Shown here: positions 8,124 through 52,047 of the stretch, one piece after another
Numbering within the stretch: position 1 is the stretch's first letter
Layout of the letters: each line of letters starts with the position of its first letter
Assembly (NCBI GenBank): GCA_965372535.1
Contig: CBDVCR010000002.1
Span: 1 to 53,967 of the forward strand
Length of the DNA: 53,967 nt
Source: an uncultured bacterium
Lineage (GTDB): Bacteria > Nitrospirota > Thermodesulfovibrionia > Thermodesulfovibrionales > JdFR-86
Reading direction: 5' to 3'
The notes under the pieces: generated by a model
Database searches by the model: none
What the model saw: only the letters and a program-made list of their open reading frames with translations
Told to the model about the DNA's origin: nothing
Translations under genes and position numbers: made by a program

Positions 8124-9461
8124 ATGAGAAAAGGGGTTTTTCTCTGTTCATTGGTGGTTGGGCTGGCGGTGGCTGCGGTATCCGCTGCGGCGCCGGACGC
8201 ATTCGCCCTGACGAATAAAACCGCGCCGGAAGTGATAAATGTCCCGGCTTCACAATCTCCCATAACAATAATTGTCAACCCCGAGTCCACCGCCGTCACT
8301 GAAAAATCCCCTCAATATATTGACGATGCAATAGGTCTTCTCGAACTTGTCGTTGGGATTTTTGCGTTAGTAGTCGCAATTCTTGGACTCTTCGGTTTTC
8401 TTGAAATTAGAAAGTGGAAAGAACAGCGCAAGGAATTTCAGGAGCAGATAAACTCCGCTGAACAAAAAATCAAGGACTTCGACAATAAAATCAACGAAGC
8501 CAAACAGAAGGTTGAAGATGCAGAAAATATGGCGAAAGAAGCCGAAAGGCAAGCTGAAAAGTCTAAGAAACTGGCCACTGAGATTGAAAATATTTTTAAA
8601 AGAATAAGAATCAGCAAAGAGCAAATCGAACGGATAAGGATAGAGGCACAAGAAAAAATGAGTGGGGTAGTTTTACCCCCCATTACCGAGGAACCGTCCG
8701 AGGAAATCAAGAGCAAGCTCGACGAGTTCGCCGAGAGAATCGAAATCCTCGAAACTGTTGGCGTAAACTTAAATGCAGAAGACTTTTTTAAAATAGCAAA
8801 AAATTATTATTATAAGGAGAATTATAAAGAATCACTTCAAGCCATAGATAAATCCATTAAAATAAACCCAAAAAATGCTAGCGCATGGACTGGCAAAGGT
8901 GCTGCCCTCGAAAGGCTCAACAGACCTGAAGTAGCGCTTGAGGCTTATGACGAAGCCATTAAATTGGAGCCTGATTATGCCCTTGCACGGTACAACAAGG
9001 GCATCGCCCTCGGAAAGCTTAAAAAGCACAATGAAGCCCTTAAGGCTTTCGACAAGGCCATCGATCTCAAACCCGATTTTGCCAAGGCGTGGGACAACAA
9101 GGGCATCGCTCTCGGAAAACTCGAAAGATACGAAGAGGCCCTTAAGGCTTTCGACAAGGCCATCGAACTCAAGCCCGATTTTGCCGAGGCGTGGGACAAC
9201 AAGGGCTTCGCCCTCAATAATCTCGAAAGACACGAGGAAGCCCTTAAGGCTCACGACATGGCAATCAAACTCAAACCCGATCTTGCCAATGCCTATTTTA
9301 ACCGCGCCTGCGTCTATGCTTTAATTGGCGACAAGGAAAACGCCCTCAAAGACCTCGCAAAGGCCATCGAGCTTGACGGCAAGTGTAAAGAAAAGGCCAG
9401 AACCGACAAAGACTTCTCCTCTCTCCGGGACGACCCGGACTTCAAGGCCCTCATCGGGTAG
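8124..9461 (+). CDS. membrane-anchored coiled-coil / tetratricopeptide-repeat protein
   Basis: Signal peptide-like N-terminus, TM helix 'LLELVVGIFALVVAILGLFGFL', a KE-rich coiled coil, then about six 34-aa TPR units. Confidence 0.85.
   Translation: MRKGVFLCSLVVGLAVAAVSAAAPDAFALTNKTAPEVINVPASQSPITIIVNPESTAVTEKSPQYIDDAIGLLELVVGIFALVVAILGLFGFLEIRKWKEQRKEFQEQINSAEQKIKDFDNKINEAKQKVEDAENMAKEAERQAEKSKKLATEIENIFKRIRISKEQIERIRIEAQEKMSGVVLPPITEEPSEEIKSKLDEFAERIEILETVGVNLNAEDFFKIAKNYYYKENYKESLQAIDKSIKINPKNASAWTGKGAALERLNRPEVALEAYDEAIKLEPDYALARYNKGIALGKLKKHNEALKAFDKAIDLKPDFAKAWDNKGIALGKLERYEEALKAFDKAIELKPDFAEAWDNKGFALNNLERHEEALKAHDMAIKLKPDLANAYFNRACVYALIGDKENALKDLAKAIELDGKCKEKARTDKDFSSLRDDPDFKALIG
9036..9239 (+). 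repeat. two near-identical 102-bp tandem units (TPR-coding) inside the TPR gene
   Basis: GCCCTTAAGGCTTTCGACAAGGCCATCGA... recurs at 9036, 9138 and (diverged) 9240, exactly 102 bp apart. Confidence 0.8.
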
Positions 9462-15572: not shown

Positions 15573-16445
15573 TCATACGGTATAACCGAGTTTTTGCATG
15601 GTTTGGCCGATGTATTTCATGGCTCCGTCAACTCTGCCCTTCGGCAGGGACAGGTAGTTGTTAATACTGGGCTTTATTCCCTTGCGAATCGTGACAATCC
15701 CATCCTCAATGCCCTTGTCATGGTCAAACTTATGATAATCGATTACCGCGGGCTCGCAGGGAATGCCAAGGTAATCAAAAAGGGCGCCGAGTATGCCTTC
15801 CGGTTTTGTAACGAGGTCTTCATAGCGCATCTCAAACGCCGCCCCGGACCTGCATACGCCGGTGCTTTTCATCTTCCCGACCTGCTCCGCCCAGAAATTG
15901 GCGTATCCCGCAAACCTGTCGTCAAAATTATTCCTCGATACGTATTGGTCAGGCACGTGGAAGTGGCGCCTGTAAAGGGAACAGGCAACGTCCAGCCCGT
16001 TTCGGTAGATGAAAACGAATTTCGCTTTTTGCTCGAACAATTCGCTTAGAACATCCACGTAATCGACATGGTCCGGGGTCTTGTCGGCCCAATAGACCTT
16101 ACCTTTTGATTGCGCGTAATTCATAAAGTAATAATCTATGTAATTACGCGTCATCTTAAACACATGGTCCTTCTCAAACCCCATTGATTCCAGCCCTTCC
16201 AGGGCTTCCCTGTTTGAGAGCATCTTCAATAAGTCCACTATGAACTTCGACTCCGGGGGGCAGGCTATCTTGCTGTGGGAGTCAAGCATTCTCCTTAAAA
16301 GCGAAGTGCCCGACCTGTAGCATCCGATTATGAAAATAGGCGGGTTAGGGCTATAATCGGCCCTGCCCTCGAAAACGACTTTTTTCGAGGGCATGAGAAG
16401 CTTGATATTATAATAAAGCTTTTGATATATGTCCCTTATATTCAT
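15573..16445 (-). CDS. sulfotransferase (intact)
   Basis: 5'-PSB loop 'IFIIGCYRSGTSLLRRML' and a 3'-PB-like 'FVFIYRNGLDVACS'. AT-rich. Confidence 0.8.
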   Translation of the reverse strand: MNIRDIYQKLYYNIKLLMPSKKVVFEGRADYSPNPPIFIIGCYRSGTSLLRRMLDSHSKIACPPESKFIVDLLKMLSNREALEGLESMGFEKDHVFKMTRNYIDYYFMNYAQSKGKVYWADKTPDHVDYVDVLSELFEQKAKFVFIYRNGLDVACSLYRRHFHVPDQYVSRNNFDDRFAGYANFWAEQVGKMKSTGVCRSGAAFEMRYEDLVTKPEGILGALFDYLGIPCEPAVIDYHKFDHDKGIEDGIVTIRKGIKPSINNYLSLPKGRVDGAMKYIGQTMQKLGYTV

Positions 16446-16516
16446 TCTGTATTTACCTCAAATTATCATTAGCCGTGAAACCTCGCAATTTTATCACGAT
16501 ATGCATGCTTTTGTTA

Positions 16517-17161
16517 TCAGCAGTCAAGGTTTTTTCTGAACCTATAGCATTCTCTGGTTTCCTTTTCGATGCGCATGCCTGCTTTCTTATAAAATGATAT
16601 TGCTCTCTCGTTACCTTTCATGACCGACAGGCGATAAGTATTGATTCTATTCATGCATAAAATTCCATTGAATTTATTGAGCATATGCAGTGCAATCCTC
16701 TTTCCTTTGAGTTGAGAGTCAACTGCGATGGACAAAAGACTGAAATCATGTTTTGGTAAGCTGCAATTATTTCCAGTGCGCTTCATGCGGGAGCGAAGTG
16801 CGGCTACAACATGAGAAATTCTGTTGAGCATTCCCCTACGTACAATCGCAGACCGTATAAATGCAAGCACAACCCTATAACAGCAAAACAGAAAATTTTT
16901 CCTGAAAAAACGGGACCGGGCAAATTCAATATGTTGCCCCCCAACTATGAACCCTATCATTCGGCCATGCCTGAAAGCCCCAATGCTCAATTTATTGTAT
17001 TCAATCAATTCCTTATAATAACGCTTTATAAGCTCAGTCCCAAGCGCTGTGAGGAAATATTCAGGGAATGCCGCCTGGTGCAACTGTGCGACCTGAAAAG
17101 CATCATGAGTGTCGAGGAAGCTAAACGCAATGGTATCTTTTTGCATTGGCGTGCTCTCCAT
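16517..17161 (-). CDS. GNAT-family N-acetyltransferase
   Basis: Motif A-like 'LLSIAVDSQLKGKRIALHML' and 'NERAISFYKKAGM'. Confidence 0.7.
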   Translation of the reverse strand: MESTPMQKDTIAFSFLDTHDAFQVAQLHQAAFPEYFLTALGTELIKRYYKELIEYNKLSIGAFRHGRMIGFIVGGQHIEFARSRFFRKNFLFCCYRVVLAFIRSAIVRRGMLNRISHVVAALRSRMKRTGNNCSLPKHDFSLLSIAVDSQLKGKRIALHMLNKFNGILCMNRINTYRLSVMKGNERAISFYKKAGMRIEKETRECYRFRKNLDC

Positions 17162-17188
17162 TATTTTCCATTCACTACCATTAGCATT

Positions 17189-18274
17189 TCACCTGGTAAG
17201 AGGGATGTCCGTAATTATATTCTTTCTGTATTTTTTTCGTATGATAAAATCCCATATACCCTTGATATACCCCATGCCGTAGCCGAAATGAATAGTAAAA
17301 AAAACAGAAGGCAACACAAAAAAATATTTTAAGCCTCTCCTGATTGCGATAGAAGATGAAAAAAATATATTAGCGGCAACGTACAGAAACAGTAACAAAA
17401 GAAACGGCCACAGAAATACCTTCCATGCAAACGACAGTATTCCAAGGGTTATCGAGCTCGCCACAAGGGTCGGCGGCATTATCTGCCTGAAAGTAAAAAC
17501 TCCTCTGGTTTTCAAGGCAACTAGCGGCTTGAAGTAGCCGTACTGGAAATACATCTTTCCAAGCTTGGAAATCGTATCCCTCGCATGATAATATGATACG
17601 ATGTCGGGTACAAGGAGGATTTTCCCGCCATTTTTCAGCAACCTCATGTTCAACTCATCGTCCTGGTTTCTTATCATGTCTTCGTCAAATACCCCTATTT
17701 CATTAAAAACCTCCTTCCTGTAACACCCAAAAGGCACGGTATCCACCAGCCTGGGCTTTTCAGAGCCTATCCTATAATAAGCATTGCCCGCGCCGAAAAA
17801 ATGAGAAACAGCCAACGCTATGGACTCGGCTGTATACGTATTGTCTCCAGGCAATATAACCCATAGACCTCCAACATTGTCCACATCATGTTCCTGCAAA
17901 TATTTGACGCATTTTGGAATATAATCTTTATTGTAAATACTGTGGGCGTCAAGCCTGATTATTATTTCGCCTTTGGCATTCTCGATGCCTATATTCAGGG
18001 CCGCTGGCACTGTTTTTTTCGGGTTGTCCATGAGCCTGATGAACGGCCATCTGCCGGAGAACCCCTTGATTTTTTCTCTTGTACCATCGCCGCTCATGCC
18101 ATCCATTACTAAGACTTCAAGTTTGCTCTTGGGATATTCAGTGTTCACAGTTGAGTCCAGACATTTGTCAATGTGCTTCTCTTCATTACGGCATGGAATA
18201 ATAACCGTTATAAAGGGCAGTGCCCCGTCATGCTTGTTTGCAGGTTCACCTGTCTTCATGCAAGTCTTTTGCAT
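17189..18274 (-). CDS. glycosyltransferase family 2 with C-terminal TM helices
   Basis: 'ITVIIPCRNEEKHIDKCLDS', 'VLVMDGMSGDGT', 'IIIRLDAHS'. Confidence 0.85.
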   Translation of the reverse strand: MQKTCMKTGEPANKHDGALPFITVIIPCRNEEKHIDKCLDSTVNTEYPKSKLEVLVMDGMSGDGTREKIKGFSGRWPFIRLMDNPKKTVPAALNIGIENAKGEIIIRLDAHSIYNKDYIPKCVKYLQEHDVDNVGGLWVILPGDNTYTAESIALAVSHFFGAGNAYYRIGSEKPRLVDTVPFGCYRKEVFNEIGVFDEDMIRNQDDELNMRLLKNGGKILLVPDIVSYYHARDTISKLGKMYFQYGYFKPLVALKTRGVFTFRQIMPPTLVASSITLGILSFAWKVFLWPFLLLLFLYVAANIFFSSSIAIRRGLKYFFVLPSVFFTIHFGYGMGYIKGIWDFIIRKKYRKNIITDIPLTR

Positions 18275-18277
18275 ATA

Positions 18278-19201
18278 TCAAATATACACCCTTCCATAAT
18301 TGCGCCTGAGATATTGAATTGTCCTATCGGATATCACAGTTCTCTTTAACCTCTTGAAGCCGCCGAACCCTGCCAGGACGCCTTTTATCGCTGCAATGAA
18401 CTCGCCTTTCCTTATTGAAGCAGCAAGGAGGACAAGACTCCAGAAGCACGTATTTATGACAAAAGGAAGAGCGGGCAAGTATTTATAGTTTATCCAGATT
18501 TTATTTCTTATCGAATAATACATGTATCCGCTTCTTACGCGGTTCAAGGAATTCAAGTGCGGATAGTGTTCAATAAATATATCCGGACAGTAAAGTATGC
18601 TGTAGCCCTTTTCGATTATGCGGTAAGACAGGTCCAGCTCTTCCGCTCCAAAGAACAAATCTTCCTGATACAAGCCACAGTCCTCATAGACTTTTTTTCT
18701 CGCAGCATGCCCTCCGCCCAGATAATAGCTGACATATTGGGACATGTCCACGATATCGGGATTCTTTTTCACTACGGCCCTACGAAAAGGAACTCTCACT
18801 TTCTTTTCATGATGCCCGTCAATATCAACAATTTTAAACGCAATCAACCCTACATCAGGAAATGTATTAAAGACATGAGTTATTTGTTCAATAGAATTAT
18901 CAAACCTGAAAGCGGCATCATCGTCCAATGTTATCAGAATATCACCCTTCGCCTTCTTGATAAGAACGTTCCTGCCGCCCGCAACGCCGAGCGGCTTGCC
19001 GGAGGTTATGCACCTGATTCTGGGGTCGTCGTATTTTCCGGCGACTTCCCCGCAGATGCCATGCCCGGAATTGTCATCGAGCACGATTATTTCAATATTA
19101 CTATACGATTGAACCAGTATGCTGCCCAGGCACCTGAGAATATCCTCGGGGCCTTCATTGGTTGCGACCAGGAAGCTTATCAACGGCTGGTTCGTCTTCA
19201 T
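18278..19201 (-). CDS. glycosyltransferase family 2
   Basis: 'ISFLVATNEGPEDILRCLGSILVQSY', 'IIVLDDNS', 'ILITLDDDA'. Confidence 0.85.
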   Translation of the reverse strand: MKTNQPLISFLVATNEGPEDILRCLGSILVQSYSNIEIIVLDDNSGHGICGEVAGKYDDPRIRCITSGKPLGVAGGRNVLIKKAKGDILITLDDDAAFRFDNSIEQITHVFNTFPDVGLIAFKIVDIDGHHEKKVRVPFRRAVVKKNPDIVDMSQYVSYYLGGGHAARKKVYEDCGLYQEDLFFGAEELDLSYRIIEKGYSILYCPDIFIEHYPHLNSLNRVRSGYMYYSIRNKIWINYKYLPALPFVINTCFWSLVLLAASIRKGEFIAAIKGVLAGFGGFKRLKRTVISDRTIQYLRRNYGRVYI

Positions 19202-20408
19202 TTCCTTCTCCTTTTAATTTATACGACGATATTAACATGCCGATTACGACCCAGAGAAAAGAGTTCGTCCCGAAAGAAAAAAACAAGAGGAATATAACCA
19301 GTAGAATAAACATCTGGTTCCACGGGTTCATGACCTTCAAGACGGCCGGAGTTTTCCTTTCATTAATCAATACCCAGAATGTCGCAAAAATAATAACCAT
19401 GAATAACAGCGCACCTATGACGCCGGAGTCTACGAGGGTTTCGAAGTATGTATTATGAGAATAATGTCCAAGCGCGCTCTGGGAAGTCCTGAGCCCGTAT
19501 CCGATGATAATCTTGTTGTCGAGTGTTTTTTCATAAAGCTCACTCCAAAAAATGGTCCTCGAACCGGAAGGAATGTCAAAAACCCTGATTCTCATGACAT
19601 TGAAGGGATTGACATCAAGCAGAAAAGTTATGGTCACTAACGATATGGAAATGCCGAGGACGGTCTTCGGGATGAAACGCAAGCTCTTTAAATCGAGCCT
19701 GACCAACCTCAGCAAAACCATGAGTATGGAGCTGATGAGGATAACGAAGTATATGGTCCTTGAAAACGCCAGAATCAAAGAGGCCGTCACCAATAAAAGA
19801 CCGCCGTATTTGACTGATTTTCTCATCTCGACCTGCATGCCGCACAGGAGGGAAAGGGTCATGAACAGCGAGAAAAAATTGGCGTCTCCCGGCAGTCCGC
19901 TCAACCTCAGATAGCCGCTCTTGTCAAGCCCGTACCCCAGCCCTCTCCAGAGGTCCGAATCATGAAGGATACTATGTATTTTCAATTGGCCCATGTAATA
20001 AAATATCAGGGATATAATTGCGAACAGGACGCCGATGAGAAAAACGGTCGAGTTTATTTTCCTGAAATCACGCACGGAAAGAGGAATCTTGGCCAACAGC
20101 AGCAATAAAATGAAATTTCTCGCAAATTGCAGATACAAAGTCGTCGCGCTTTTCGGAGTAATGGAAATATACGCACTTGTCCCGCACCAGAGGAAAAATA
20201 TAAAGTACGCAAGTATCGGAGAAATATAGAGGAAGGAAGGGAACCTCCTGATGGAATTGCCCCTGGAAAAATACAATGCAAAGTATATAACACCCATGAC
20301 TATTACGATGTCAGCGGGATCTATCTTTATGCCAATATCAAAATAAAAGCCCTGCAGGTTATACGCTGTAAAAAGAAGAACAACAAAAATAATGGAATTA
20401 TTATTCAT
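19155..20408 (-). CDS. O-antigen polymerase/ligase-family membrane protein (Wzy_C type)
   Basis: About 10 TM helices and 'GHYSHNTYFETLVDSGVIGALLF'. ATGA-type overlap with the upstream gene. Confidence 0.8.
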   Translation of the reverse strand: MNNNSIIFVVLLFTAYNLQGFYFDIGIKIDPADIVIVMGVIYFALYFSRGNSIRRFPSFLYISPILAYFIFFLWCGTSAYISITPKSATTLYLQFARNFILLLLLAKIPLSVRDFRKINSTVFLIGVLFAIISLIFYYMGQLKIHSILHDSDLWRGLGYGLDKSGYLRLSGLPGDANFFSLFMTLSLLCGMQVEMRKSVKYGGLLLVTASLILAFSRTIYFVILISSILMVLLRLVRLDLKSLRFIPKTVLGISISLVTITFLLDVNPFNVMRIRVFDIPSGSRTIFWSELYEKTLDNKIIIGYGLRTSQSALGHYSHNTYFETLVDSGVIGALLFMVIIFATFWVLINERKTPAVLKVMNPWNQMFILLVIFLLFFSFGTNSFLWVVIGMLISSYKLKGEGNEDEPAVDKLPGRNQ

Positions 20409-21461
20409 TTCTTATGTCCCGGCTTACTTTGGCCATAAACCACACGCATTCTCTTCCTGATAAGAAACAGCTTGATCTGAATCCAGAAAAGTTTTCTGTT
20501 ATTCACGTAATGAAACAACCGTTTATAATAACTCCATAATGTACACTTATAATGCATAAGATAAGCATAAGAAACACAAAAAAGCTTATTCCATTTTTTC
20601 GCTTTACTTAAGAACCATTTTTCGTATCCATAGGCCTGAAGACTATGTCCCAGAACTGCCTCAACAGCCACGCCCTGCCATATTGGAAGTTCTCTCTTCC
20701 AGCCCTCCGTTCGCTTAATGTCAGGGGGTTTGTCGAATAACGCGTGTATGCCTTTTTCTTTCCCGCTCACATTAAAAAATGTATTTTCATCGCTTGCTCT
20801 TTGCGCTACAAAGGGAACGTCCAGGAATCTGAGAACATCCTTTATCCTGTCGACAACGGAAAAGCACAAGTCCTCATACCGTACTTCTGTCATCCGGATG
20901 CCGCTAACCTTCTTCATGTCATCAGCCATCATCATGTAATTCATCCAGGTCCTTGCCATGAATACCACGTTGCCTCTGCCCATCTGTTCCTGCACCAAAT
21001 AAGGTGTCTTGAAGCGGAGCATGGAGTTTACAACAGCCCTCGGATCGCGGAAGATATGGATAAATTCAGCCATGGGAAAGAGGTGGAGCAATATCCGATA
21101 GTAATATATCAATGCGCCGTTTTTAATTAGCACAACGCTAAAAGTCCGGTCTTTTAACTTCGAAAAATTCCGGGCGATGCTCTCCATCAAGCTTTTGATA
21201 CCTTTGCCCTTGTTGCCCTCCGCGATAGCATACAACCATTCATCGTCAAATCCAAGGTTGTCTATTTGATAGTCAAGTTTCATTAAGTTAAACAAATCTT
21301 CAGTGCCCATTTTTCTTAAGTTATCGTCGCCCTTGGCTATTAAAAGTTCAGGCAGCCTGAACTCCGGCATCACAAGTGTGTCCGGGGAATACATGGATAG
21401 TTGTCTTGCAAAAAAAAGTAGAACCCGAACGCGAATTATATAGAAGAAACACAAACCTCAA
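20405..21461 (-). pseudogene. sulfotransferase interrupted at a T8 homopolymer (possible phase-variable gene or homopolymer sequencing error)
   Basis: TTG start at 21461, 6 nt after AAGGAGG, gives 'MRFVFLLYNSRSGSTFF' (5'-PSB loop). The frame is lost at T8 (A8 on +, 21410-21417). The rest, including 'IHIFRDPRAVVNS' (3'-PB), continues in ORF 20405..21454. One T fewer would give a continuous 351-aa protein. Confidence 0.75.
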
Positions 21462-21552
21462 CCCTTGCCTCCTTTTACGTTTTAAGAGCAACCCTTGCCT
21501 CCTTTTACGTTTTAAGAGCAACCCTTGCCTCCTTTTACGTTTTAAGAGCAAC
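21459..21552 (-). repeat. perfect tandem repeat, 3.1 x 30 bp
   Basis: The unit on the coding (minus) strand is TGCTCTTAAAACGTAAAAGGAGGCAAGGGT. It spans the wzx stop, an SD and a TTG. Confidence 0.95.
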
Positions 21553-22812
21553 TTTGGTCTTTCCCTTATTTTGCAGGAGAAAGAGATGCCATACGTTCAG
21601 CAAAATTAGGCTTACCGCCGTGACACAAGCCGCGCCCACCGCGCCGAAAGCCCTGATGGCAAAAAAGTTTCCGACGGCGTTCCCCCCGGCGACCAATCCC
21701 GTGGAAAAGGCAAACTGGCGCTCCTTTCCCGACATCAAAAGCGCAGATCCAACTATCCCAGCAGCCGCGTTAACAAACTGCCCCACCGCGAGAATTCTCA
21801 AGAGAACGGCACCTTCCGCGAATTTCGGACCGAAAATAGCCAGCAGATGCTGCGCTCCTAAAACCATTATTATAAACAGCGGCAAAGTGCCGACAGTGGA
21901 CCATTTAACCACTTTACGCATAATCGCCTTGAACTCGCCGGGCCGGTTCCCGTGATACGCGGAGGCCAACATCGGCGCAGCCAGGGTGTTTATCGCCAAT
22001 AACAGAAAAACGTTCAGAGTAGCAATCCGGTTTGCGGCGCTGTAAAGCCCGACCGTGTCCATGTTCACCATGGCCCCGAGCATCAGCACGTCGGTTCGGA
22101 CAATGATTATCTTACTCGCTTCTCCTAACAGCATGGGCAGGGCTATCGCCATCCATTTGCGGATATTGAACTCCGGGGGGGCGCTTCTCCCCTGCTTGGG
22201 AAGTCTCCTGCACAGCAGGACGACGCCTGCCAGGAAAACGAACAAAGCGGCGCCCGCGTATATCAGCAACGCATCGGTAGCGTTATCTGCGGCGAAAACA
22301 TATACACCTAAGATCACAAGCACCGGAAGGACAATGTCATCGGGGATAATGCTCTCCTTTGCGCATTGTAAACTTCTCAGGGCTCCGCGGCGCAGATTGG
22401 CGAAGGTCAATAGAGGTAGTAACAATGAAGCATACTGCAGGCTCCGAGCCATGTCTTGGGACATGGGTATTGCATGGGCAACTCCCCAGAGCGCCAGGGC
22501 CGTCAGGGTTACGCTAACAAACGCAACACCGTGCGCCGTTATAATAGACCCCTTCATCAGGCCCCACCTTTTCTGCTCGCGATACTCCGTAACGAAACGC
22601 AATAGGGCTGTAGTCCACCCGAGCGGCATAACAAACGCCAGCAATCCCGCAAGGGCGACCGCGTAGCTGAACATCCCGAACCCCTCTTTTCCAAGCACGC
22701 GCGCTATGACCGCGTGCATCGAAAAAAGCAGCCCGGCCCCCAGTACCCGGAGCAGGAAGGCCTCGACCGCACCGCGGCGCAAGCGCATGAGGGCGCTCTG
22801 TTCAGCGTCCAT
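21535..22812 (-). CDS. wzx: oligosaccharide flippase (Wzx / MOP superfamily)
   Basis: 425 aa, about 12 predicted TM helices, with a polysaccharide-biosynthesis-protein-like N-terminus. Confidence 0.85.
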   Translation of the reverse strand: MDAEQSALMRLRRGAVEAFLLRVLGAGLLFSMHAVIARVLGKEGFGMFSYAVALAGLLAFVMPLGWTTALLRFVTEYREQKRWGLMKGSIITAHGVAFVSVTLTALALWGVAHAIPMSQDMARSLQYASLLLPLLTFANLRRGALRSLQCAKESIIPDDIVLPVLVILGVYVFAADNATDALLIYAGAALFVFLAGVVLLCRRLPKQGRSAPPEFNIRKWMAIALPMLLGEASKIIIVRTDVLMLGAMVNMDTVGLYSAANRIATLNVFLLLAINTLAAPMLASAYHGNRPGEFKAIMRKVVKWSTVGTLPLFIIMVLGAQHLLAIFGPKFAEGAVLLRILAVGQFVNAAAGIVGSALLMSGKERQFAFSTGLVAGGNAVGNFFAIRAFGAVGAACVTAVSLILLNVWHLFLLQNKGKTKVALKT

Positions 22813-22889
22813 CCGGAGGCCCCTTTCGAGCGGTGTTCATAAGTTTCACCCTTATTGCAAACAGCTTATTCATCGGATACGACTTTTAC

Positions 22890-25253
22890 TCAATACGAGG
22901 AACCCTTTTCCGCTCCCCCGCTGCCGGCCTTCAGGCTCTCGATCCTTTTTCTCGCATACTTGTTGCCCGGGTCGATAAGCAGCGCCTTCCCGTACTCCTC
23001 GGCGGCCCGGTAGGGGATGCCGGTCCTCTCGTAAAGGCTCCCCAAAGTTATCCGTATGCCGGCGTTGTCGGGCAGGGCACTGGCGGCCTTCCGCATAACC
23101 CCAAGCGCCTCGTCCAGACGCCCGTCTTTTGCGAAATGCCGGCGGACCCTTAAGAAATACGAAGGGTCCGGTTCCTTTTCGCCTACGGCGTACTCGACCG
23201 CCTTAAGGTATGCCCTTTCTGCCATGCCCTTTCTGCCCGTCTCGAGGAGGAAATCCCCGTAGTCCAGATACGGCCTTGCCTTCTCCGGAAGCGCCCTTTC
23301 CATCTCCCCGAGGTCCAGCCCCCGGAGCAGCATGGCCGCGATATAGCCCCTCGTATTTTCCGGCTCTATTGATATCGCCCTGCCCATCTCCACAAGCCCC
23401 CGCTCCCTCTCCCCTCGCCAGAAGAGCCACAGGGCGTACCGCCTGTGCACGGCCGGGTTCATCGGCTCGCACGCGGCCCCGGAAGCCAGCAACTTGTCCG
23501 CCATTTCGTAATCTTCACGCTGCGAGAACGCCAGGGCCGCCCTCTGCAGGTATCCGCCGTTTAAGGGGTCAAGGCCGACGGCCTTTCCGTAATGCCTTAA
23601 GGCCTGGTCTTTCTCTGAAAGCAGCAGCGCGGCGTCGGCCCCGGCGTAGGGGTACTTCGCCTCAAGGGGGTCGAAAATCGACGCCCTGTAAGCGCGCTCC
23701 TTCATCCGCTTAAGGGCCTCAGCCGGGGTATGCCTGTCAAGCTCCATGTCCTCCACGGATGAAAAACCGGACTTCGCTGTAATTACCCCCGCGTTGGCGC
23801 CCGTAACCAGGAGGGCCGCAAGGGCCGCAAGGGCCAGGTGTTTGGCGGGAAACGGCCGTCCCATGCCCTTAAGGTACGTGCCGTCTCTTCTAATCCTCGT
23901 ATGGGCCGCCGAAACGGCAAGCCCGGCGAGGAAGAAGAAGTAAAGTCCGTTGGCGCCTATGTGGAGGTTGAAGTCCGTAAACCCGTGAAACAGGAAATAC
24001 GCCATTCCGGCCAGAGCGCCCAGGGCCAGATAAATCGAATACGGCTCCATCCTCACGGCCAAGGCCCTCGCCGTCCTGATAAATACCGCGGCCAGGAACC
24101 AGCCCGCCAGGGCCGAGCCGACAAGACCCCCTTCCACGAGAAGCTCCAGATAATCGTTGTGGGCATGGTCCACGATGCGGCCGTTGGAAATGGAGCCGAA
24201 CACCTTATAAACGTGAACATAGCTGCCAAAACCCGTCCCGAAAACCGGGAAACGACCGATGATGCCCAGGCTGTCCTTCCAGAGGTCCACCCTAAGGTCG
24301 CTGATATCGCCGGAGGCGCCCCTGAGCCGCCCGAACCGCTCAAAGACCGGCTCCCACCCGAACCAGCCCACCGAAAACAAAAGGAGGACGAAAACCAGCA
24401 TGATGACCAGGCCCCTTTTCAGGTCCTTTCCAAGGAGCAGGGCACCCAGCAGGAGCATGGAAAAACAGAGGCTTATAATCCCTCCCCTTGAGAGCGAGAC
24501 AAAGACCGACGCCCCGATAAGCACGGCGGAAAACACAAGCAGCACGTATACGTTGGTCCTTCTCTGGTTGAATATCCCCACCACCGTCTCACGCAGAGAC
24601 TTATAGGCAACCTTCGGCTTATAGGCGAGCAAGAGGCCCACGACGACCGGCAGCACCATGCCCATGAACCCGGCGTAGTGGTCCCTGTTTACGTAAGGCC
24701 CGAAGGGGATGCCTCCCCTCGTAAGCTCCCTGAACCATAAAACCTTCTCGGGCGCGGCAAAATGCTGCAGTATGCTCGAAAGCGCAAGCGCCGTGGCGAA
24801 GACGGAAACCAGGGCGGCGGTTTTCCTGAGGCGTCCGGCCCCGCTTAAAAGCTGCACCGTGAGGACGTAGAACATGGCATAGGACGTAAAACGCACGCCC
24901 TCAAGCACGGTCGCCTTTTTGTTGAGGGAAAGCGACATCCACCCCGAAGGCTCAAGTATCCCCGCCGTCCCCTGGTAAAGCCCGTATGTGGCGGGCGAGA
25001 GGAGCTTGACCGCCGCCGCAGGAAGCGGCAGAACCTGAAAGAACATGTAAACCCACAGGCAGAGGAGGGGCAGGAACCCGGGCACTTCGTAAAGCCGCGC
25101 CTCCCCGCGCCGTGCGCCTGTTCCAACGAGCATCAACAGGGCGGCCGCGGTAAGGCACTGCATGAGAGCCAGCGACCACGTCTCCACGGACCCGAACGCC
25201 AGGGGAGAGAAAAGCAGGACAAAAAGGAATATCCTGTAAACGGCCTTATGCAT
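22890..25253 (-). CDS. O-antigen ligase-like (Wzy_C) membrane domain fused to a C-terminal TPR domain
   Basis: 'VDHAHNDYLELLVEGGLVG' within a polytopic N-terminal half. The C-terminal ~300 aa are TPR-like. Confidence 0.8.
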   Translation of the reverse strand: MHKAVYRIFLFVLLFSPLAFGSVETWSLALMQCLTAAALLMLVGTGARRGEARLYEVPGFLPLLCLWVYMFFQVLPLPAAAVKLLSPATYGLYQGTAGILEPSGWMSLSLNKKATVLEGVRFTSYAMFYVLTVQLLSGAGRLRKTAALVSVFATALALSSILQHFAAPEKVLWFRELTRGGIPFGPYVNRDHYAGFMGMVLPVVVGLLLAYKPKVAYKSLRETVVGIFNQRRTNVYVLLVFSAVLIGASVFVSLSRGGIISLCFSMLLLGALLLGKDLKRGLVIMLVFVLLLFSVGWFGWEPVFERFGRLRGASGDISDLRVDLWKDSLGIIGRFPVFGTGFGSYVHVYKVFGSISNGRIVDHAHNDYLELLVEGGLVGSALAGWFLAAVFIRTARALAVRMEPYSIYLALGALAGMAYFLFHGFTDFNLHIGANGLYFFFLAGLAVSAAHTRIRRDGTYLKGMGRPFPAKHLALAALAALLVTGANAGVITAKSGFSSVEDMELDRHTPAEALKRMKERAYRASIFDPLEAKYPYAGADAALLLSEKDQALRHYGKAVGLDPLNGGYLQRAALAFSQREDYEMADKLLASGAACEPMNPAVHRRYALWLFWRGERERGLVEMGRAISIEPENTRGYIAAMLLRGLDLGEMERALPEKARPYLDYGDFLLETGRKGMAERAYLKAVEYAVGEKEPDPSYFLRVRRHFAKDGRLDEALGVMRKAASALPDNAGIRITLGSLYERTGIPYRAAEEYGKALLIDPGNKYARKRIESLKAGSGGAEKGSSY

Positions 25254-29113: not shown

Positions 29114-30787
29114 CTAAAGCGACGCGGTTATCCTGAAAAACACCCTGTTGTTCCTGAAGTCAAAAATATCCGCATTGGACGCCCTCTCCGTATAAGCGTA
29201 ACCGATGTCCGCGAAAAACCACTTTACGGCCTCATACCTGAAGGCGACCACCCCCCTGTATATCTCGTCTTTTCTTTGCTTTGCCGCCCCTCCGAACGTG
29301 TCGAACGTCCTCTCGTCGTACGACGCGCTCAGGCTGACGGATACCCTGCGGGTAAACCTCTGCGCGTAATCCGCCCTGACGCTGTTTGAAAGCACGAACT
29401 CCGAAGTCTGGACGTCGACCTCCTCTCTTTCTCTCGAAACCGAGAGGTTTAAGAAAGTCTTGGGCGTGAAGTTATGCCGCAACCTGCCCGCGAGCACGAA
29501 CGTCTCGTTGCCTTCGCCCAAGGGGTCCCGGCGTTTCTCTCTGACCCCGTAGCCCGCCTTCACCCTCCCGGTGGACTTCGCCGTCACGTCCCACTCGAGC
29601 CCGCCGAAATAATTCCGTTCAACGCTGTCGGGGAGGACGTCCGTGTCATAATCTATGTCGATGTATTCGTACTGGAGGAACGCCGAGGTCATGGCCGTGG
29701 TCTTATAGAAAACATAGCCCGAATAGACATCGTCCCTTCGGTTTCTGAATTCACTCTGCGCCCGCCCGTAATCCGCCAGAAAGCCGGCATATTCGGCTTT
29801 CAACCTGAGCCTCGCAAACTGATACGACAACGCCGCGCCGCCGCGGTAGTTGAAGAAGTCCTCCGGGTCGCCGGGCAGACCGGCGCCGGTGCTGTCGCGG
29901 GACTTAAGAAAACGCCCCGAAAGGCCCAGCCCGATGCCTCCCCTCGAATTAAACAGGAGCTTCCCCTCCGCCTTATGGTGTGTGAAGTCCTGCGAAGAAC
30001 TTTCCTTGAATTTCTCCACGTCCGCCTGGTATATGAGATATGCCTGAAAGACCCTGTCCGAACCCGGAAAATCGTCGTCCCCGCCGCCCGGCACATGCGC
30101 GGAAATATTTTTCCACCTCCTGGCCTTCCTGCTGCCCGGCGCCGCCAGCCACACCCCGGGCGAGACCACGGTCACATAATCCGAGACCTCGCCGCTTGCG
30201 GTACCGAAAAGGTTATCGGTGTGGACCTCCGATATGGAGAGAAAAGGGTGGAAATACCCTCCCTTTTTTTTTAGCATGTCCCATGAGATGCGGCCCTGTT
30301 CATACGACGGGGCAGGTGCTTTCCCGGCTGCTTCGCCCTCCAGTACCTCCTCAGCCACAACCAGCACGGGAGCCGGCCCCTGTTCGGCTTCCGGCTCGAT
30401 GTCTTCGGACAATGGGACGGGAATTTTTTCTTCAGTGGCCGCCGTCGTTTCGGCCAGGGAGGTTTCGGCCAGGGGGCAGGAAACCACTGACACGGACTTG
30501 ACGGCGTTGACTGCAAACGCATCGCGGAACCCGGTGCTCCTTAACTTGTCCCTCATGTAAAGGGCCTCGTCCATGGAGCCGAACTCCCCGCAATGGACCT
30601 TGTGAAAGCCGTCTTCATTAACAATCCTGCATTCGATGTCCTTGTTCCGCAGGTCGCAGACCACTCCCTTTGCGTTTCTGAGTATTATAAAACTCCCCAC
30701 CTGAACGGAAAAAAAATCCGACGCACACGCAATGGAAGAAAACAGCAGGAAAAGAGCAATCGATATCGCATGGATATTCAAACGCAA
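29114..30787 (-). CDS. SPOR-domain protein fused to a predicted outer-membrane beta-barrel (EpsL-like)
   Basis: Signal peptide and SPOR-like 'FFSVQVGSFIILRNAKGVV...HKVHCGEFGSMDEALYMRDKLRSTGFRDAFAV'. The C-terminal ~370 aa have alternating Y/F/R beta-strand patterns. Confidence 0.7.
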   Translation of the reverse strand: MRLNIHAISIALFLLFSSIACASDFFSVQVGSFIILRNAKGVVCDLRNKDIECRIVNEDGFHKVHCGEFGSMDEALYMRDKLRSTGFRDAFAVNAVKSVSVVSCPLAETSLAETTAATEEKIPVPLSEDIEPEAEQGPAPVLVVAEEVLEGEAAGKAPAPSYEQGRISWDMLKKKGGYFHPFLSISEVHTDNLFGTASGEVSDYVTVVSPGVWLAAPGSRKARRWKNISAHVPGGGDDDFPGSDRVFQAYLIYQADVEKFKESSSQDFTHHKAEGKLLFNSRGGIGLGLSGRFLKSRDSTGAGLPGDPEDFFNYRGGAALSYQFARLRLKAEYAGFLADYGRAQSEFRNRRDDVYSGYVFYKTTAMTSAFLQYEYIDIDYDTDVLPDSVERNYFGGLEWDVTAKSTGRVKAGYGVREKRRDPLGEGNETFVLAGRLRHNFTPKTFLNLSVSREREEVDVQTSEFVLSNSVRADYAQRFTRRVSVSLSASYDERTFDTFGGAAKQRKDEIYRGVVAFRYEAVKWFFADIGYAYTERASNADIFDFRNNRVFFRITASL

Positions 30788-47900: not shown

Positions 47901-48683
47901 ATGAAGGTCCTTTTCGTCGGCGATATCGTTGCCAGGGCGGGCAGGACCGCCCTTAAGGCCCTCCTGCCGAAAATCAGGGACCGCTACAGGCTCGACGTCG
48001 TCCTGGCAAACGGCGAAAACGCCGCGGGCGGCTTCGGCATCACGGAGAAGGTGGCCTCCGAGCTTTTCGCCATGGGCGTGGAGGTCATCACCACCGGCAA
48101 CCACGTCTGGGACAAGAAAGAGGCCGTTAAATACCTGGACCGGGAAAAGCGCATACTGCGGCCCCTTAACTACCCCCCCGGCGTCCCCGGCATGGGCAGC
48201 ATCGTCCATGAAACCAAAAAGGGGGAGAAATTGGCCGTCCTTAACGTCTCCGGCAGGGTGTTCATGCAGAACTACGACTGCCCCTTCCGGGGCGTCGAGG
48301 CGGAGCTTGAGAAGCTCAAGGGGGTCACGAAAAACATCGTCGTCGATTTCCACGCCGAGGCCACGTCGGAGAAAATCACCTTCGGCTATTTCCTGGACGG
48401 CAAGGTCAGCGCCGTTCTCGGCACGCACACCCATGTGCAGACCGCGGACGAGAAAGTGCTCCCCGGCGGCACGGCCTACATTACCGACGTCGGGATGACA
48501 GGCCCCGCGGACTCCATCATCGGGGTGGAAAAAGAACAGATAATCGAGCGGTTTCTGACCCTGATGCCCCGGAGGTTCGACGCGGCCAAAGGCCCGGCGA
48601 TGCTCAACGCCGTGGTGCTCGACATTGACGGAAAGACCGGCCGCTCCACCGCCATCCACAGGCTCCAGCTTACGCACCCGTAG
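47901..48683 (+). CDS. ymdB: YmdB-family metallophosphoesterase (2',3'-cyclic-nucleotide phosphodiesterase)
   Basis: 'MKVLFVGDIV', 'ANGENAAGGFGIT', 'TTGNHVWD', 'DFHAEATSEK', 'GTHTHVQTADE'. Confidence 0.9.
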   Translation: MKVLFVGDIVARAGRTALKALLPKIRDRYRLDVVLANGENAAGGFGITEKVASELFAMGVEVITTGNHVWDKKEAVKYLDREKRILRPLNYPPGVPGMGSIVHETKKGEKLAVLNVSGRVFMQNYDCPFRGVEAELEKLKGVTKNIVVDFHAEATSEKITFGYFLDGKVSAVLGTHTHVQTADEKVLPGGTAYITDVGMTGPADSIIGVEKEQIIERFLTLMPRRFDAAKGPAMLNAVVLDIDGKTGRSTAIHRLQLTHP

Positions 48684-48973
48684 GGGGGGGGAGGTAGGGG
48701 GTTGCTTCCTGAAACAAGAAAATTAACGGATTAATAAATTATGATAATTTCAAACATAAATTCGCAGCGAGGACTTCTTCCTGAACTTTGCAGGGTCAGA
48801 GGGGTGAAAAAACTGCGGAGTAGCAGTGTAAATCAACAGGGGAACATGGAAGTGGCCCTGTATGCCTGCAGGAAGAGCTATTTATCTTGATAATATTGGA
48901 ATTCATGTGCTAATCTTTTCCATGATAAATAAACAATTTTCCATAAAATTCAGTGCTTATAGGGCTTTTTTGA

Positions 48974-49894
48974 ATGCTTGACCCAGTTGAATTATTTCCA
49001 GAAATTCCCAATTTATATCAATTCCCGAGCGTGCATGCAGGGATGCTATATGATGAAGAACGGGTGGCAAAATATTCAGCAGCTATCAAACAAGTTATAA
49101 AAAAGGGCGATGTTGTGGCAGATATTGGCACAGGAACAGGACTTCTTGCATTTTTATGCTTAAAGGCAGGTGCAAAGAGGGTGCATGCTATCGAACGATC
49201 ATCAGCAATAGATTGGGCCAAACGAATTGCCGACAAGAATGGGTTAAGCGATAGAATTATTTTTCATAAGCAAGATTCGCGAGATTGCGATCTTCCGGAG
49301 AAGGTTAATGTGGTAGTGAGCGAACTTATTGGTCACATTGCTTTTGAGGAGGGAATGGCCGAATCGCTTTTCGACGCGAGGGAAAGGTTCCTTGTGCCAG
49401 GTGGCGTCTTGGTGCCGGAAAAAGTAGATTTAAGAGTGGCACTTGTTGAAGAAAAGGAGGTTTATCCAGAGTGTATAGATTGTTGGCAAGATATAGGAGG
49501 AATTGATTATTCACCTATGCGTGAAGAAGCGGTTAAGGCATGTTATTTGTCCAATTTAAAAGACCGTGATCTTTTGTCAAAACCAAAGACTTTTTTTAGG
49601 GCGGATTTCCAAGCAAGAAGGCCGTTAAATCTAAAAGGAAAACATTCATTTGATGTCTGTCGTGACGGGAAAATAAATGGGATTGCTTTATGGTTTGAAT
49701 CATGTCTTTCTCCTACTGTCACACTTTCTTCAGGTCCTGGGACACGAACGCACTGGAAACAATGCTTTGCGCCGCTAACAGAAGCGATTCATGTAAGTAT
49801 GGGTGATAACGTTTGCGTTAATATCGATATGCAATTACGCACTAAAGAAAATGATTCGTTTCGAATTATTTTTAGCGTTGAAAAGAAAGATTAA
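48974..49894 (+). CDS. protein arginine N-methyltransferase (PRMT)-like SAM-dependent methyltransferase
   Basis: 'HAGMLYDEERVAKY', motif I 'VVADIGTGTGLL', 'AKRVHAIERS', double-E loop 'VVVSELIGHIAFEEGM', THW loop 'THWKQ', plus a full-length beta-barrel region. Confidence 0.85.
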   Translation: MLDPVELFPEIPNLYQFPSVHAGMLYDEERVAKYSAAIKQVIKKGDVVADIGTGTGLLAFLCLKAGAKRVHAIERSSAIDWAKRIADKNGLSDRIIFHKQDSRDCDLPEKVNVVVSELIGHIAFEEGMAESLFDARERFLVPGGVLVPEKVDLRVALVEEKEVYPECIDCWQDIGGIDYSPMREEAVKACYLSNLKDRDLLSKPKTFFRADFQARRPLNLKGKHSFDVCRDGKINGIALWFESCLSPTVTLSSGPGTRTHWKQCFAPLTEAIHVSMGDNVCVNIDMQLRTKENDSFRIIFSVEKKD

Positions 49895-49908
49895 TTCAAA
49901 GGTAAAAA

Positions 49909-51642
49909 ATGCCAAATCCAGAAACATTTGAGGTGTTTGATTTACTCGATAAATACAAAGGTCGCTTAAAAACGATAGGGTTTTTGAAGGGGAGTTCACT
50001 TAAAGATATTGAAGATAAATTAAAAAAGTTAATGGGATTATTTCCAAAAGGCGTAAAGGATAAAGAAGAATCATTGGACTGGCATGAAGCACATGAAATA
50101 GGGCGAGACTTATGGCGCCAATTGATAAGCGCTGCGATAAATAGTATTGATGAAAATTCCAAGGGAAATTCGAAGCTTTTTGAATATCTCGATGACGCAA
50201 CAAAATTTGAAGATTTATTATATGGACTGGACCCATACTATAGAGACCACACATTGCATTCGTTATGGGTTTATTTTTTAGGAGACCAACTGTTAAATAA
50301 TGATTTAAAACATGTTTATGAGCAGCTAAATTGGTACTTATTCAATGATATCAAAAGAGATGAGGAGAAGTATCAATATAAAACAGAATTGGTGAATTTT
50401 TCAAAAATAAAAAAAGAGCTACTTTGTAATGAAGTGAATAAACATAAAGATGCAATTTGGTGTATTATCGCGCTGTGTCATGATCTGGGATATTCTCTTG
50501 CCAAATTAAATAGGCTCAATGCAAGTGTCCAAAAGGTATTAGAATATTACGATGTACCTGACTTCAGGCATGTTGGATATTCGTTAGATATTGAGCACCA
50601 ATACCTTATGTCACAGTTTCTCGAATTGATGTGCATGGATGTACGTATTGAGCCTAGCGAGAAATATGATGACCCAAAAAAAATAACCCGAGGAGCAAAG
50701 AAATGGCTATCTGCTTGGAATGATGCAAACAATGGTAAATATAGCGACGATGAACGTAAGGAAAAAGTAAACAGCCTTTCACAAAGAATCCCAAGAGAGT
50801 TAGAAAATAAAATATCAGTTAAATGCTATAAGGATGACTCAACATACTGGCGATTATGTCGAGCACTAGAGAAGAAGGAACATGGAATATTAAGTGCGTA
50901 TTTAATTTATAAAATTCTTGGCATTTTTGCAGAAAGTTCAGTGCGAGGGCCTGCGGAAGAGTGGGGTCTTGACGATGCGGAAACGCAACGCAATATAATT
51001 AGAGGCGATATTCTTTTTGCAATTGCTCAGCATGGATTCGATTTTGCTCATCTAAATCAGTTAGGTAGTCTCGCTGACCTTCTAATAATTGCTGATGAAT
51101 TAGAGGAATTTACTAGATACGGTAGACAATTGGCATCACGAAAATATACCGCTACGACCGCAAAAACATCAATAGAATTTAGAAATCCCCAAAATAATGA
51201 GGGAATTAAGCCAGGACAGGATATCGAGATAGATATTGCTTATTATTGTAAGCATAAGCAGGAAGAACATTTTCTTGATTTTTTTCGTAGAAAAGCAGAA
51301 AAACGATTATGTAGTATCTATTCCCTTAAGCCAACACGAGAAGAAAAGGCAGAGGAGGAAAAGGATAATTATTGCACCATAACAAGCATTAAAATGAATA
51401 TGAAGTGGGAAGACCCAAAAGATGAGACAAACAAAAAGGAATATTGGTTTAAATTTTCCAGTGATGGCAAACTTTGGGGCGGTTTGCCAGAGTATAAATT
51501 AGACGACAGGGATAGTGAAATGCCGGAAGAAGGATATGAGCTAAAATCTTATGATGATGAACTCCGAGTTTATTATGATGGAAAAGAGATAAAATTAAAA
51601 AAATGGTTAGGATTAGATAAGTCGGATGTTGAAAAAGATTAA
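49909..51642 (+). CDS. HD-domain-like protein of unknown function (577 aa)
   Basis: 'RDHTLHSLWVYFLG' ... 'IIALCHDLGYSL' ... 'LLIIADELEEF' give H-HD-D spacing. I recognised no other domain. Confidence 0.7.
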   Translation: MPNPETFEVFDLLDKYKGRLKTIGFLKGSSLKDIEDKLKKLMGLFPKGVKDKEESLDWHEAHEIGRDLWRQLISAAINSIDENSKGNSKLFEYLDDATKFEDLLYGLDPYYRDHTLHSLWVYFLGDQLLNNDLKHVYEQLNWYLFNDIKRDEEKYQYKTELVNFSKIKKELLCNEVNKHKDAIWCIIALCHDLGYSLAKLNRLNASVQKVLEYYDVPDFRHVGYSLDIEHQYLMSQFLELMCMDVRIEPSEKYDDPKKITRGAKKWLSAWNDANNGKYSDDERKEKVNSLSQRIPRELENKISVKCYKDDSTYWRLCRALEKKEHGILSAYLIYKILGIFAESSVRGPAEEWGLDDAETQRNIIRGDILFAIAQHGFDFAHLNQLGSLADLLIIADELEEFTRYGRQLASRKYTATTAKTSIEFRNPQNNEGIKPGQDIEIDIAYYCKHKQEEHFLDFFRRKAEKRLCSIYSLKPTREEKAEEEKDNYCTITSIKMNMKWEDPKDETNKKEYWFKFSSDGKLWGGLPEYKLDDRDSEMPEEGYELKSYDDELRVYYDGKEIKLKKWLGLDKSDVEKD

Positions 51643-51660
51643 ACTTAAGAATTTTTTACT

Positions 51661-52047
51661 ATGAAGAAAATAGAAAAGAAACCATATGGATTTGAGCTGA
51701 TAATAGATTTACATAAATGTGACGTGTCTACATTTAACAGAGAAAGCCTTGACGCTTATTTTGCAAAACTGTGCAAGGCAATTAAGATGCAAAAATGCGA
51801 ACGATATTTCTGGGATGATGTTGGATTGCCAGAAGAGCAGAAGCAGACATCTCCTCATACAAAAGGGTCTTCGGCAGTACAGTTTATCCTTACCAGTTCT
51901 ATTGTTATTCATACGTTGGATTTATTAGAAGCTGTTTATATAAATATTTTTTCATGTAAAAAATACAATAAGGAGCTGGCAGTTAAGATTACAAAAGAGT
52001 GGTTTGTTGCAAAGGAAGTTAGAACGCATTTCATTGAGAGGATTTAG
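51661..52047 (+). CDS. SpeH-type (class 1) S-adenosylmethionine decarboxylase-like pyruvoyl enzyme, divergent
   Basis: Aligns by eye with prokaryotic AdoMetDC. 'YGFELIIDLHKC', 'GSSAVQFILTSSIVIHT' (canonical ...ISESHLTIHT) and 'INIFSCKKY' (canonical DLFTCG). Confidence 0.8.
   Translation: MKKIEKKPYGFELIIDLHKCDVSTFNRESLDAYFAKLCKAIKMQKCERYFWDDVGLPEEQKQTSPHTKGSSAVQFILTSSIVIHTLDLLEAVYINIFSCKKYNKELAVKITKEWFVAKEVRTHFIERI

Follow-up and report, generated by a model that had tools for sequence, protein, structure and literature searches.

The gene sulfoT1, placed between wzx and wzy in a polysaccharide biosynthesis locus, is interrupted 45 nt into its coding sequence by a run of eight T; the removal of one T restores a sulfotransferase of 351 amino acids. 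The explanation we favour, with even confidence, is a genuine and recent slipped-strand insertion (T7 to T8) in an incidental Thr-Phe-Phe run of a gene that is otherwise intact. It is preferred to an error of the assembly, which is possible and distinctly less probable. The analysis covered the whole 53,967-nt stretch of DNA (the window), in which the elements of the break are:

20405..21461, minus strand: sulfoT1, the whole sulfotransferase gene, 351 codons after removal of one T
21410..21417, minus strand: T8 homopolymer on the coding strand (A8 on the plus strand), the point of the frame break
21348..21461, minus strand: frame-0 reading as assembled, from the TTG start to TGA (sequence and ORF list)
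21468..21474, minus strand: Shine-Dalgarno (SD) sequence AAGGAGG, 6 nt before TTG 21461
21452..21454, minus strand: TTG in the frame of the protein body, start of the 349-aa ORF (P0001) reported by gene callers

The coding strand reads AAGGAGG CAAGGG TTG AGG TTT GTG TTT CTT CTA TAT AAT TCG CGT TCG and continues GGT TCT ACT TTT TTT TGC AAG, with the T-run at 21417-21410. Translation in frame 0 gives 17 native residues (MRFVFLLYNSRSGSTFF) followed by 20 out-of-frame residues and a TGA at 21348-21350. In ORF 21348..21551(-), ...LRFVFLLYNSRSGSTFF is followed by 20 wrong-frame residues, and the rest of the protein, including IHIFRDPRAVVNS, is found in the +1 frame within the 349-aa ORF 20405..21454(-). 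The T8 divides a 17-residue amino terminus, in which the RSGST PAPS-binding loop lies, from a body of 334 residues. No single reading frame codes the sulfotransferase as assembled, the 5'-phosphosulfate-binding (PSB) loop being in frame 0 and the remainder in frame +1.

With seven T the run becomes ACT TTT TTT GCA (T15-F16-F17-A18). The repaired 351-aa protein begins at TTG 21461-21459 with MRFVFLLYNSRSGSTFFARQLSMYSPDTLVMPEF... and reads ...RSGSTFFARQLSMYSPDTLVMPEF... across the junction. A first, sequence-only reading of this DNA had proposed that sulfoT1 is split into two ORFs at the A8 of the plus strand (21410-21417) and that loss of a single T yields 351 amino acids from TTG 21461, 6 nt past AAGGAGG; the sequence and its frames agree with both proposals. 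Its description of the two ORFs holds for the split and has to be amended for the upstream ORF, which does not end in ...STFF and extends 20 wrong-frame residues beyond. The body-frame TTG 21454 comes directly after a TGA at 21458-21460 and lies 13 nt from the SD. Its product, P0001, has MCFFYIIRVRVLLFF in place of the first beta-strand and the PSB loop. The coincidence of the frame break with a homopolymer is beyond chance, and the one-base repair is colinear with 14 homologues over the junction.

Two cofactor-binding motifs are recognised in the repaired protein:

21417..21431, minus strand: RSGST, the PSB loop, codons R11-S12-G13-S14-T15 (alignment)
21023..21049, minus strand: RDPRAVVNS (R138-S146), the 3'-phosphate-binding motif, in the body frame

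Pfam family Sulfotransfer_3 (PF13469) matches residues 10-217 of the repaired protein (5e-15, 56.7 bits for a cut-off of 27), while an NCBIfam search of sulfoT1 found no named equivalog. The protein is colinear over its full length with its 14 closest homologues in an alignment of 15 sequences. All 16 invariant columns of this alignment are kept (R11, S12, G13, S14, T15, V30, P32, E33, L69, K113, R138, D139, R141, S146, E196 and H239). R11 to T15 are unchanged in 15/15 sequences and match the RSGST of 4gbm and 4gox, the repaired junction STFFARQLS aligning with the family consensus RSGSTxLAxxLA. Four homologues have an M(R/K)(F/Y/I) start at the column of TTG 21461. R138, D139, R141 and S146 of the 3'-phosphate motif do not vary among the 15 sequences, and the motif aligns with VRHPYSVIES of 4gbm. 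The assignments of RSGST as PAPS loop and of RDPRAVVNS as 3'-phosphate motif, already made in the first reading, are borne out by this invariance and by the alignment to 4gbm. The invariant P32-E33 pair aligns with the PEL motif of 4gbm; its Glu is a candidate for the catalytic base, which in TPST2 and CurM-ST is a Glu.

The AF2 model of the repaired protein (pLDDT 92, pTM 0.90) places the PSB loop after strand 2-8, an arrangement found in the T7 reading only. Foldseek top matches of the model are TPST1/2 and the CurM sulfotransferase (E 3e-9 to 4e-7, probability 1.00), and mycobacterial Stf proteins are also among the matches with probability 1.00. A family profile searched against the PDB gave 4gbm (CurM sulfotransferase) at 1.6e-12, and also 4gox (olefin-synthase sulfotransferase) and TPST1/2; in the profile alignment to 4gbm, RSGST falls on RSGST and PEF on PEL. 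On its modelled fold and motifs, repaired sulfoT1 is confidently predicted to be a TPST/CurM-type PAPS-dependent sulfotransferase. It has in common with these enzymes (PDB 5wrj, 3ap1, 4gbm, 4gox) the fold, the RSGST loop after beta-1, the PE(F/L) motif and the Arg/Ser of the 3'-phosphate-binding site. It differs from them in an identity of only ~16-22% and in ~100 extra carboxyl-terminal residues, which feature two long basic/aromatic helices (289-342) common to the sulfoT1 homologues and probably attach the enzyme to the membrane surface. The genomic context of sulfoT1 suggests a lipid-linked sugar as substrate, in contrast to the protein tyrosine or polyketide modified by TPST and CurM-ST.

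A protein search of 5.8 billion sequences retrieved, besides P0001, only 15 relatives of sulfoT1, nearly all of 323-356 aa and the best 38% identical. All 14 homologues examined at the site (14/14) are single uninterrupted ORFs, showing that the frameshift is not conserved. The locus of the best homologue, P0002, has the order found here, with Wzx, the sulfotransferase and then a 429-aa protein without Pfam match, and it codes also a second sulfotransferase, of the Sulfotransfer_2 family. A tract at the equivalent site is absent from both homologue loci that were read (L017 and L018), which hold relatives of 36-38% identity only. A scan of GTDB genomes with the neighbouring 787-aa protein gave best matches of at most 49% identity, the nearest ones in Thermodesulfovibrionales, Nitrospirae and Desulfobacterales MAGs; none of the 16 GTDB loci found in this way has a sulfoT1 homologue. 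Scans of JGI metagenomes with a DNA pattern allowing T6-T10 (0 matches) and with Wzx returned no relative, and exact-protein look-ups of the 349-aa ORF and of Wzy found nothing on record. The source organism is without a close sequenced relative.

The setting of sulfoT1 is a minus-strand polysaccharide locus that extends from ~11.9 to 30.8 kb (Pfam scan) and includes:

21535..22812, minus strand: wzx, Polysacc_synt flippase gene, upstream of sulfoT1 (Pfam)
19155..20408, minus strand: wzy, Wzy_C-domain polymerase gene, downstream of sulfoT1 (Pfam)
20405..20408, minus strand: ATGA overlap of the sulfoT1 stop (TGA) and the wzy start (ATG)
15573..16445, minus strand: sulfoT2, intact sulfotransferase gene (Sulfotransfer_3, 5e-33), product 22% identical to sulfoT1

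In order of transcription the locus starts with a barrel of the outer membrane (SPOR + BBP2_2), a Wza-like exporter, a Wzc-like tyrosine kinase and a CpsB phosphatase. These are followed by an O-antigen-ligase/TPR protein, Wzx, sulfoT1 and Wzy, and then by two GT2 glycosyltransferases, GNAT, sulfoT2, a DegT aminotransferase, Bac_transf and a PglF-like dehydratase. The set of domains is that of a Wzx/Wzy system: Polysacc_synt, Wzy_C, Bac_transf, GNVR+AAA_31 (Wzc-like), Poly_export+SLBB (Wza-like) and CpsB. The surface-glycan setting claimed for the gene is thereby established, with sulfoT1 between wzx and wzy in a complete Wzx/Wzy/Wzc/Wza locus. The segment from sulfoT2 through sulfoT1 (15.6-21.5 kb) is an island of 41-46% GC within DNA that is mostly of 53-63% GC. 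In polysaccharide loci, the part that is variable and serotype-specific typically has such a low GC. The low identity (22%) discards sulfoT2 as a redundant recent paralogue of sulfoT1. The window is chromosomal and codes RNase Y, YmdB, ThiC, pyrF and an anthranilate-synthase-type chorismate-binding enzyme.

In the explanation that we favour, slipped-strand replication inserted one T at nucleotide 45 of sulfoT1, a gene whose product would be a PAPS-dependent sulfotransferase decorating the repeat unit of a Wzx/Wzy-dependent exopolysaccharide or capsule; the repeat unit is its probable substrate. Ribosomes starting at the SD-served TTG 21461 would make a 37-residue peptide. Products initiated in the body frame, at TTG 21454 or ATG 21393, would lack the first beta-strand and the RSGST loop. 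Without the PAPS-binding loop the enzyme would be off, and sulfoT1 activity is therefore probably lost. The AF2 model locates the break inside helix 14-24, two residues past the cofactor loop, so that no assembled product has both the PAPS loop and the catalytic body. A split enzyme made of two polypeptides is discarded because the break falls inside this helix and the amino-terminal fragment has only 17 native residues.

The polymer would then be devoid of one of two kinds of sulfate group. The ATGA overlap between sulfoT1 and wzy is a possible case of translational coupling, which the frameshift would uncouple; about 940 nt would be left untranslated ahead of wzy and its expression may fall, the frameshift being in that case polar on wzy. 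The same slippage could revert the allele, at the low rate of a short poly-T, and cells with the gene on and off may for this reason coexist in a large population. On this view the run arose by chance, mutates as little as short poly-T does and is no evolved contingency switch.

The main rival of the recent null allele is that the organism has T7 and an intact, ordinary gene, the eighth T being a miscall of the consensus. Homopolymers are the commonest place for consensus indel errors, and the break lies exactly within one. As an error would give, sulfoT1 has no second defect and keeps all its invariant residues. The sequence is represented by a single unreplicated contig, without a second copy in the collections searched, and local assembly may be hindered by a perfect tandem repeat at a distance of 42 nt.

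Against the miscall, nothing else in the 54 kb looks miscalled and the other coding runs of 6-9 all keep their frame. One base was added or removed at every run of at least six, a gain of 60 codons being flagged. The few flagged gains were all at gene boundaries or in intergenic DNA, and no run of at least six inside a gene other than sulfoT1 marks a frame break; the gain at sulfoT1 itself is only 46 codons, under the flag. At four other coding runs of 8-9 the frame is kept (17297-17304, 30264-30272, 30709-30716 and 50676-50683). None of the other ~45 genes looks broken, the scanned ORFs that match Pfam being all near full-length domain matches, with three scanned ORFs having no match and several short ORFs lying outside the scan. 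The scan and the intact Pfam domains discard an assembly that is systematically prone to homopolymer errors. Overall, the extra T is probably present in the DNA, since serious homopolymer trouble would give more breaks in the window and since, with accurate reads, a single miscall of an 8-mer is rare and less frequent than a true frameshift of an accessory glycan gene. A miscall thus keeps a minor though sizeable share of the probability.

The first reading had put forward the run as a candidate phase-variation switch. In such a switch a contingency tract would flip often between T7 (on) and T8 (off), leading to mixed sulfation and possibly to variable wzy expression. Several traits agree with it. 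The tract is 5'-proximal (nucleotide 45) in a surface-glycan modification gene located in the variable, low-GC part of a polysaccharide locus, and a change of one T switches between a truncated product (T8) and 351 aa (T7). The gene is undecayed, which fits equally a reversible switch kept by selection and a null allele of very recent origin. A perfect 30-bp x3 repeat, a second slippage-type feature, abuts the start codon. Simple sequence repeats (SSR) are well known to switch capsule and LOS modification genes in Campylobacter, Neisseria and Helicobacter (PMC6321876, PMC8437040).

The length of the tract argues against frequent switching. PhasomeIt uses cut-offs of at least 10 for poly-A/T and at least 7 for poly-G/C (PMC6321876), so that T7 and T8 are both shorter than the tracts used to call phase-variable loci, and borderline tracts may mutate below 1e-5, too slowly for reversible switching (PMC6321876). 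Nor does the tract exceed what chance or codon usage would give. Simulations of the gene with Markov-1 and Markov-2 models gave an A/T run of at least 8 at P ~0.22 and of at least 7 at P ~0.5. In synonymous-codon shuffles of repaired sulfoT1, a run of at least 7 appeared in 46%, and within the first 60 nt in 24%. With the codon usage of the island, the probability of ACT TTT TTT given Thr-Phe-Phe is ~0.10. Neither the shuffles nor the simulations revealed an excess of the tract over composition or codon usage: the T-run is a chance feature of Thr-Phe-Phe codons and is statistically unremarkable.

Runs of the same length in neighbouring genes leave the reading frame undisturbed. The five neighbouring genes of the low-GC island have seven further runs of at least 7, including an in-frame T8 in GT2a, and the barrel gene has an in-frame T8 (D-F-F-S) and an A9. 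Length, enrichment, in-frame neighbouring runs and the two homologue loci of 36-38% identity, which have no tract at the site, all fail to support the switch, and it is improbable. The two alternatives raised with it, a plain pseudogene and an error of sequencing, are still the most likely explanations.

The repeat next to the start codon is the following feature:

21459..21552, minus strand: perfect 30-bp x3.1 tandem repeat, unit TTGCTCTTAAAACGTAAAAGGAGGCAAGGG, directly upstream of sulfoT1

It is a second slippage-type feature at the start of sulfoT1. The 30-bp unit includes the last five wzx codons with their TAA, the SD and the spacer. Its repetition creates three SD+TTG modules (TTG 21521, 21491 and 21461), all in sulfoT1 frame 0, and each additional unit would add LLLKRKRRQG. 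The repeat is located exactly at the GC break of the island and has no counterpart in the homologue loci. As its copies are identical, the repeat either arose recently or is still expanding and contracting, or its assembled copy number is uncertain. Its presence 42 nt from the T-run marks a neighbourhood that either slips readily in vivo or is hard to assemble. No significant fold, Rfam match, or promoter or terminator signal above background was found at the repeat, and a regulatory RNA, a terminator and a promoter were discarded there. It is conceivable, at a probability that we consider small, that the two features form, in an uncultured environmental anaerobe, a slippage module in which the T-run toggles the frame and a copy-variable repeat multiplies SD+TTG; what weight this has is owed mainly to the presence of the repeat at the same start.

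Recoding, by which a fixed T8 would still give some full-length enzyme, is very improbable. The routes would be RNA-polymerase slippage on U8 (-1 U or +2) or a +1 slip of tRNA-Phe on UUU_U, and U UUU UUU U permits perfect re-pairing of tRNA-Phe in the +1 frame. A/T runs of 8 slip productively in IS elements of Deinococcus and Nostoc, and an A8 in human apoB is rescued to ~10% by transcriptional slippage, yet the usual run-length threshold for such slippage is 9 (PMC1088944). Rescue of sulfoT1 requires the loss of one nucleotide (or the gain of two) in RNA, while transcriptome-wide slippage in runs gives almost only insertions, in-run deletions being rare (PMC5574713). The 14/14 homologues are unshifted, no significant stimulatory RNA structure is found near the run (fold z-score +1.16), an Rfam search of 20000-23000 gave no match, and the 0-frame A-site codon after the run is UGC, a sense codon that is neither a stop nor an evident hungry codon. 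Leaky suppression at the percent level is possible, as non-programmed frameshift suppression in E. coli reaches ~1-4% (PMC10861913). A -1 ribosomal frameshift on U_UUU_UUU is discarded because the -1 frame, which differs from the body frame, meets a TGA within 16 codons.

The architecture of the locus resembles that of the synechan (xss) cluster of Synechocystis PCC 6803, which is likewise Wzx/Wzy-dependent and combines two sulfotransferases of different subfamilies with glycosyltransferases, a flippase, a polymerase and a co-polymerase (PMC8205485). This likeness is one of gene content and architecture. Unlike the cyanobacterial cluster, the locus encodes a Wza-type exporter, shows no XssS/R/Q-type regulators and has one of its sulfotransferases frameshifted, and the nearest relatives of its flanking gene are from Thermodesulfovibrionales, Nitrospirae and Desulfobacterales MAGs, at no more than 49% identity. 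In xss, loss of xssA abolishes EPS accumulation while loss of xssE changes little (Maeda et al. 2021; PMC8205485), so that either outcome is conceivable for the loss of sulfoT1.

With the SSR loci of Campylobacter, Neisseria and Helicobacter (PMC6321876, PMC8437040, PMC5953494) sulfoT1 shares a 5' mononucleotide run in a surface-polysaccharide modification gene and truncation of the product by a one-unit change, a likeness in geometry only. Their tracts are mostly poly-G/C of at least 7-8 or poly-A/T of at least 10, compared to T8/T7 in sulfoT1; they are conserved, length-variable between strains or cells and numerous per genome, whereas the sulfoT1 run is unique in the data. Frameshifted pseudogenes to which transcriptional slippage gives partial rescue (Baranov et al. 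2005; PMC1088944) and the poly(A) genes of Blochmannia and Buchnera (PMC3017870, PMC5574713) are likewise intact but for a one-base indel in a run of A or T. Where rescue occurs, the runs are of at least 9 and mostly a base is inserted in RNA, while sulfoT1 has a run of 8 and needs the loss of a base.

A homopolymer frameshift in an accessory glycan gene is an ordinary event, and the locus is interesting, not unprecedented; a single such frameshift is routine and matters little as it stands. The break is invisible to annotation, as the body-frame TTG gives an ORF of 349 aa compared to 351 aa for the intact protein. This ORF still scores Sulfotransfer_3 though it lacks the cofactor loop, and pipelines would consequently list a dead enzyme as intact. 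The locus also provides a complete Wzx/Wzy system with two sulfotransferases outside cyanobacteria. Mixed tract lengths, if true, would mean phase-variable polysaccharide sulfation in an environmental bacterium, a moderately interesting case. Should the T-run and the 30-bp repeat act as a two-part module, they would generate heritable and reversible heterogeneity in exopolysaccharide sulfation, and perhaps in polymerisation via the coupling to wzy. Contingency loci would then be found beyond host-adapted pathogens, in free-living Nitrospirota- or Desulfobacterota-like bacteria, and contingency-locus biology would reach sulfate decoration.

The frameshift in sulfoT1, the sulfotransferase gene whose reading frame is broken at a T8 run (21410-21417), is not revealed by the annotation. 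It is masked by a TTG codon in the body frame (21452-21454), which opens an ORF of 349 aa (20405..21454, minus strand) versus 351 aa for the intact gene. This ORF lacks the RSGST cofactor loop, yet its protein database entry (P0001) is a Sulfotransfer_3 protein.

The following features of the window are listed by position:
8992-9289, tandem repeat of 102 bp x2.9 with 84% identity, within the gene of a 445-aa TPR protein (8124..9461)
15573-21461, low-GC island, 41-46% GC in surrounding DNA mostly of 53-63%
21459-21552, minus strand, perfect tandem repeat of 30 bp x3.1, unit TTGCTCTTAAAACGTAAAAGGAGGCAAGGG
29114..30787, minus strand, gene of an outer-membrane barrel with SPOR and BBP2_2
47901..48683, plus strand, YmdB-like gene
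48974-53413, second low-GC block, 34-41% GC

The start of sulfoT1 lies at the 30-bp repeat, which covers the stop codon of the flippase gene wzx, the SD and the spacer, and provides three modules of SD and TTG start, all in frame with sulfoT1. The repeat has no other copies in the window and lies right at the GC break that bounds the low-GC island. The 102-bp repeat consists of ordinary TPR units.

Other homopolymer runs are found in the window. The barrel gene carries an A9 (30264-30272) and a T8 (30709-30716), the latter coding D-F-F-S at the end of the signal peptide, ~24 codons into the gene. Both runs are in frame and, being intact, are useful control tracts for the sulfoT1 T-run. A G9 run (48683-48691) overlaps the final base of the YmdB-like gene stop codon and is followed by an AT-rich spacer of 290 bp that leads to the second low-GC block. 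The gene set of this block is unusual: its products are a PRMT-like protein of the arginine-methyltransferase type, a protein of 577 aa without Pfam match, an AdoMet-decarboxylase-like protein of 128 aa and a DUF3326 protein.

The low-GC island codes sulfoT2 (the second, intact sulfotransferase), a GNAT protein, two GT2 enzymes, the polymerase Wzy and sulfoT1, and is probably the exchanged, serotype-specific portion of the polysaccharide locus. The last 47 nt of wzy (19155-19201) also belong to the GT2 gene that comes next, which reads them in another frame. Both genes appear intact; a T7 run (19277-19283) lies within wzy just upstream of the overlap.

The island holds both sulfotransferase genes of a single, non-cyanobacterial Wzx/Wzy cluster. 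The locus of a sulfoT1 homologue with 38% identity (L017, 2512-7116) has a Wzx-containing cluster in which a GH123-like gene is also present. This cluster likewise features two sulfotransferases (Sulfotransfer_3 and Sulfotransfer_2), and sulfotransferase pairs may therefore be common in Wzx-type polysaccharide loci such as these two.
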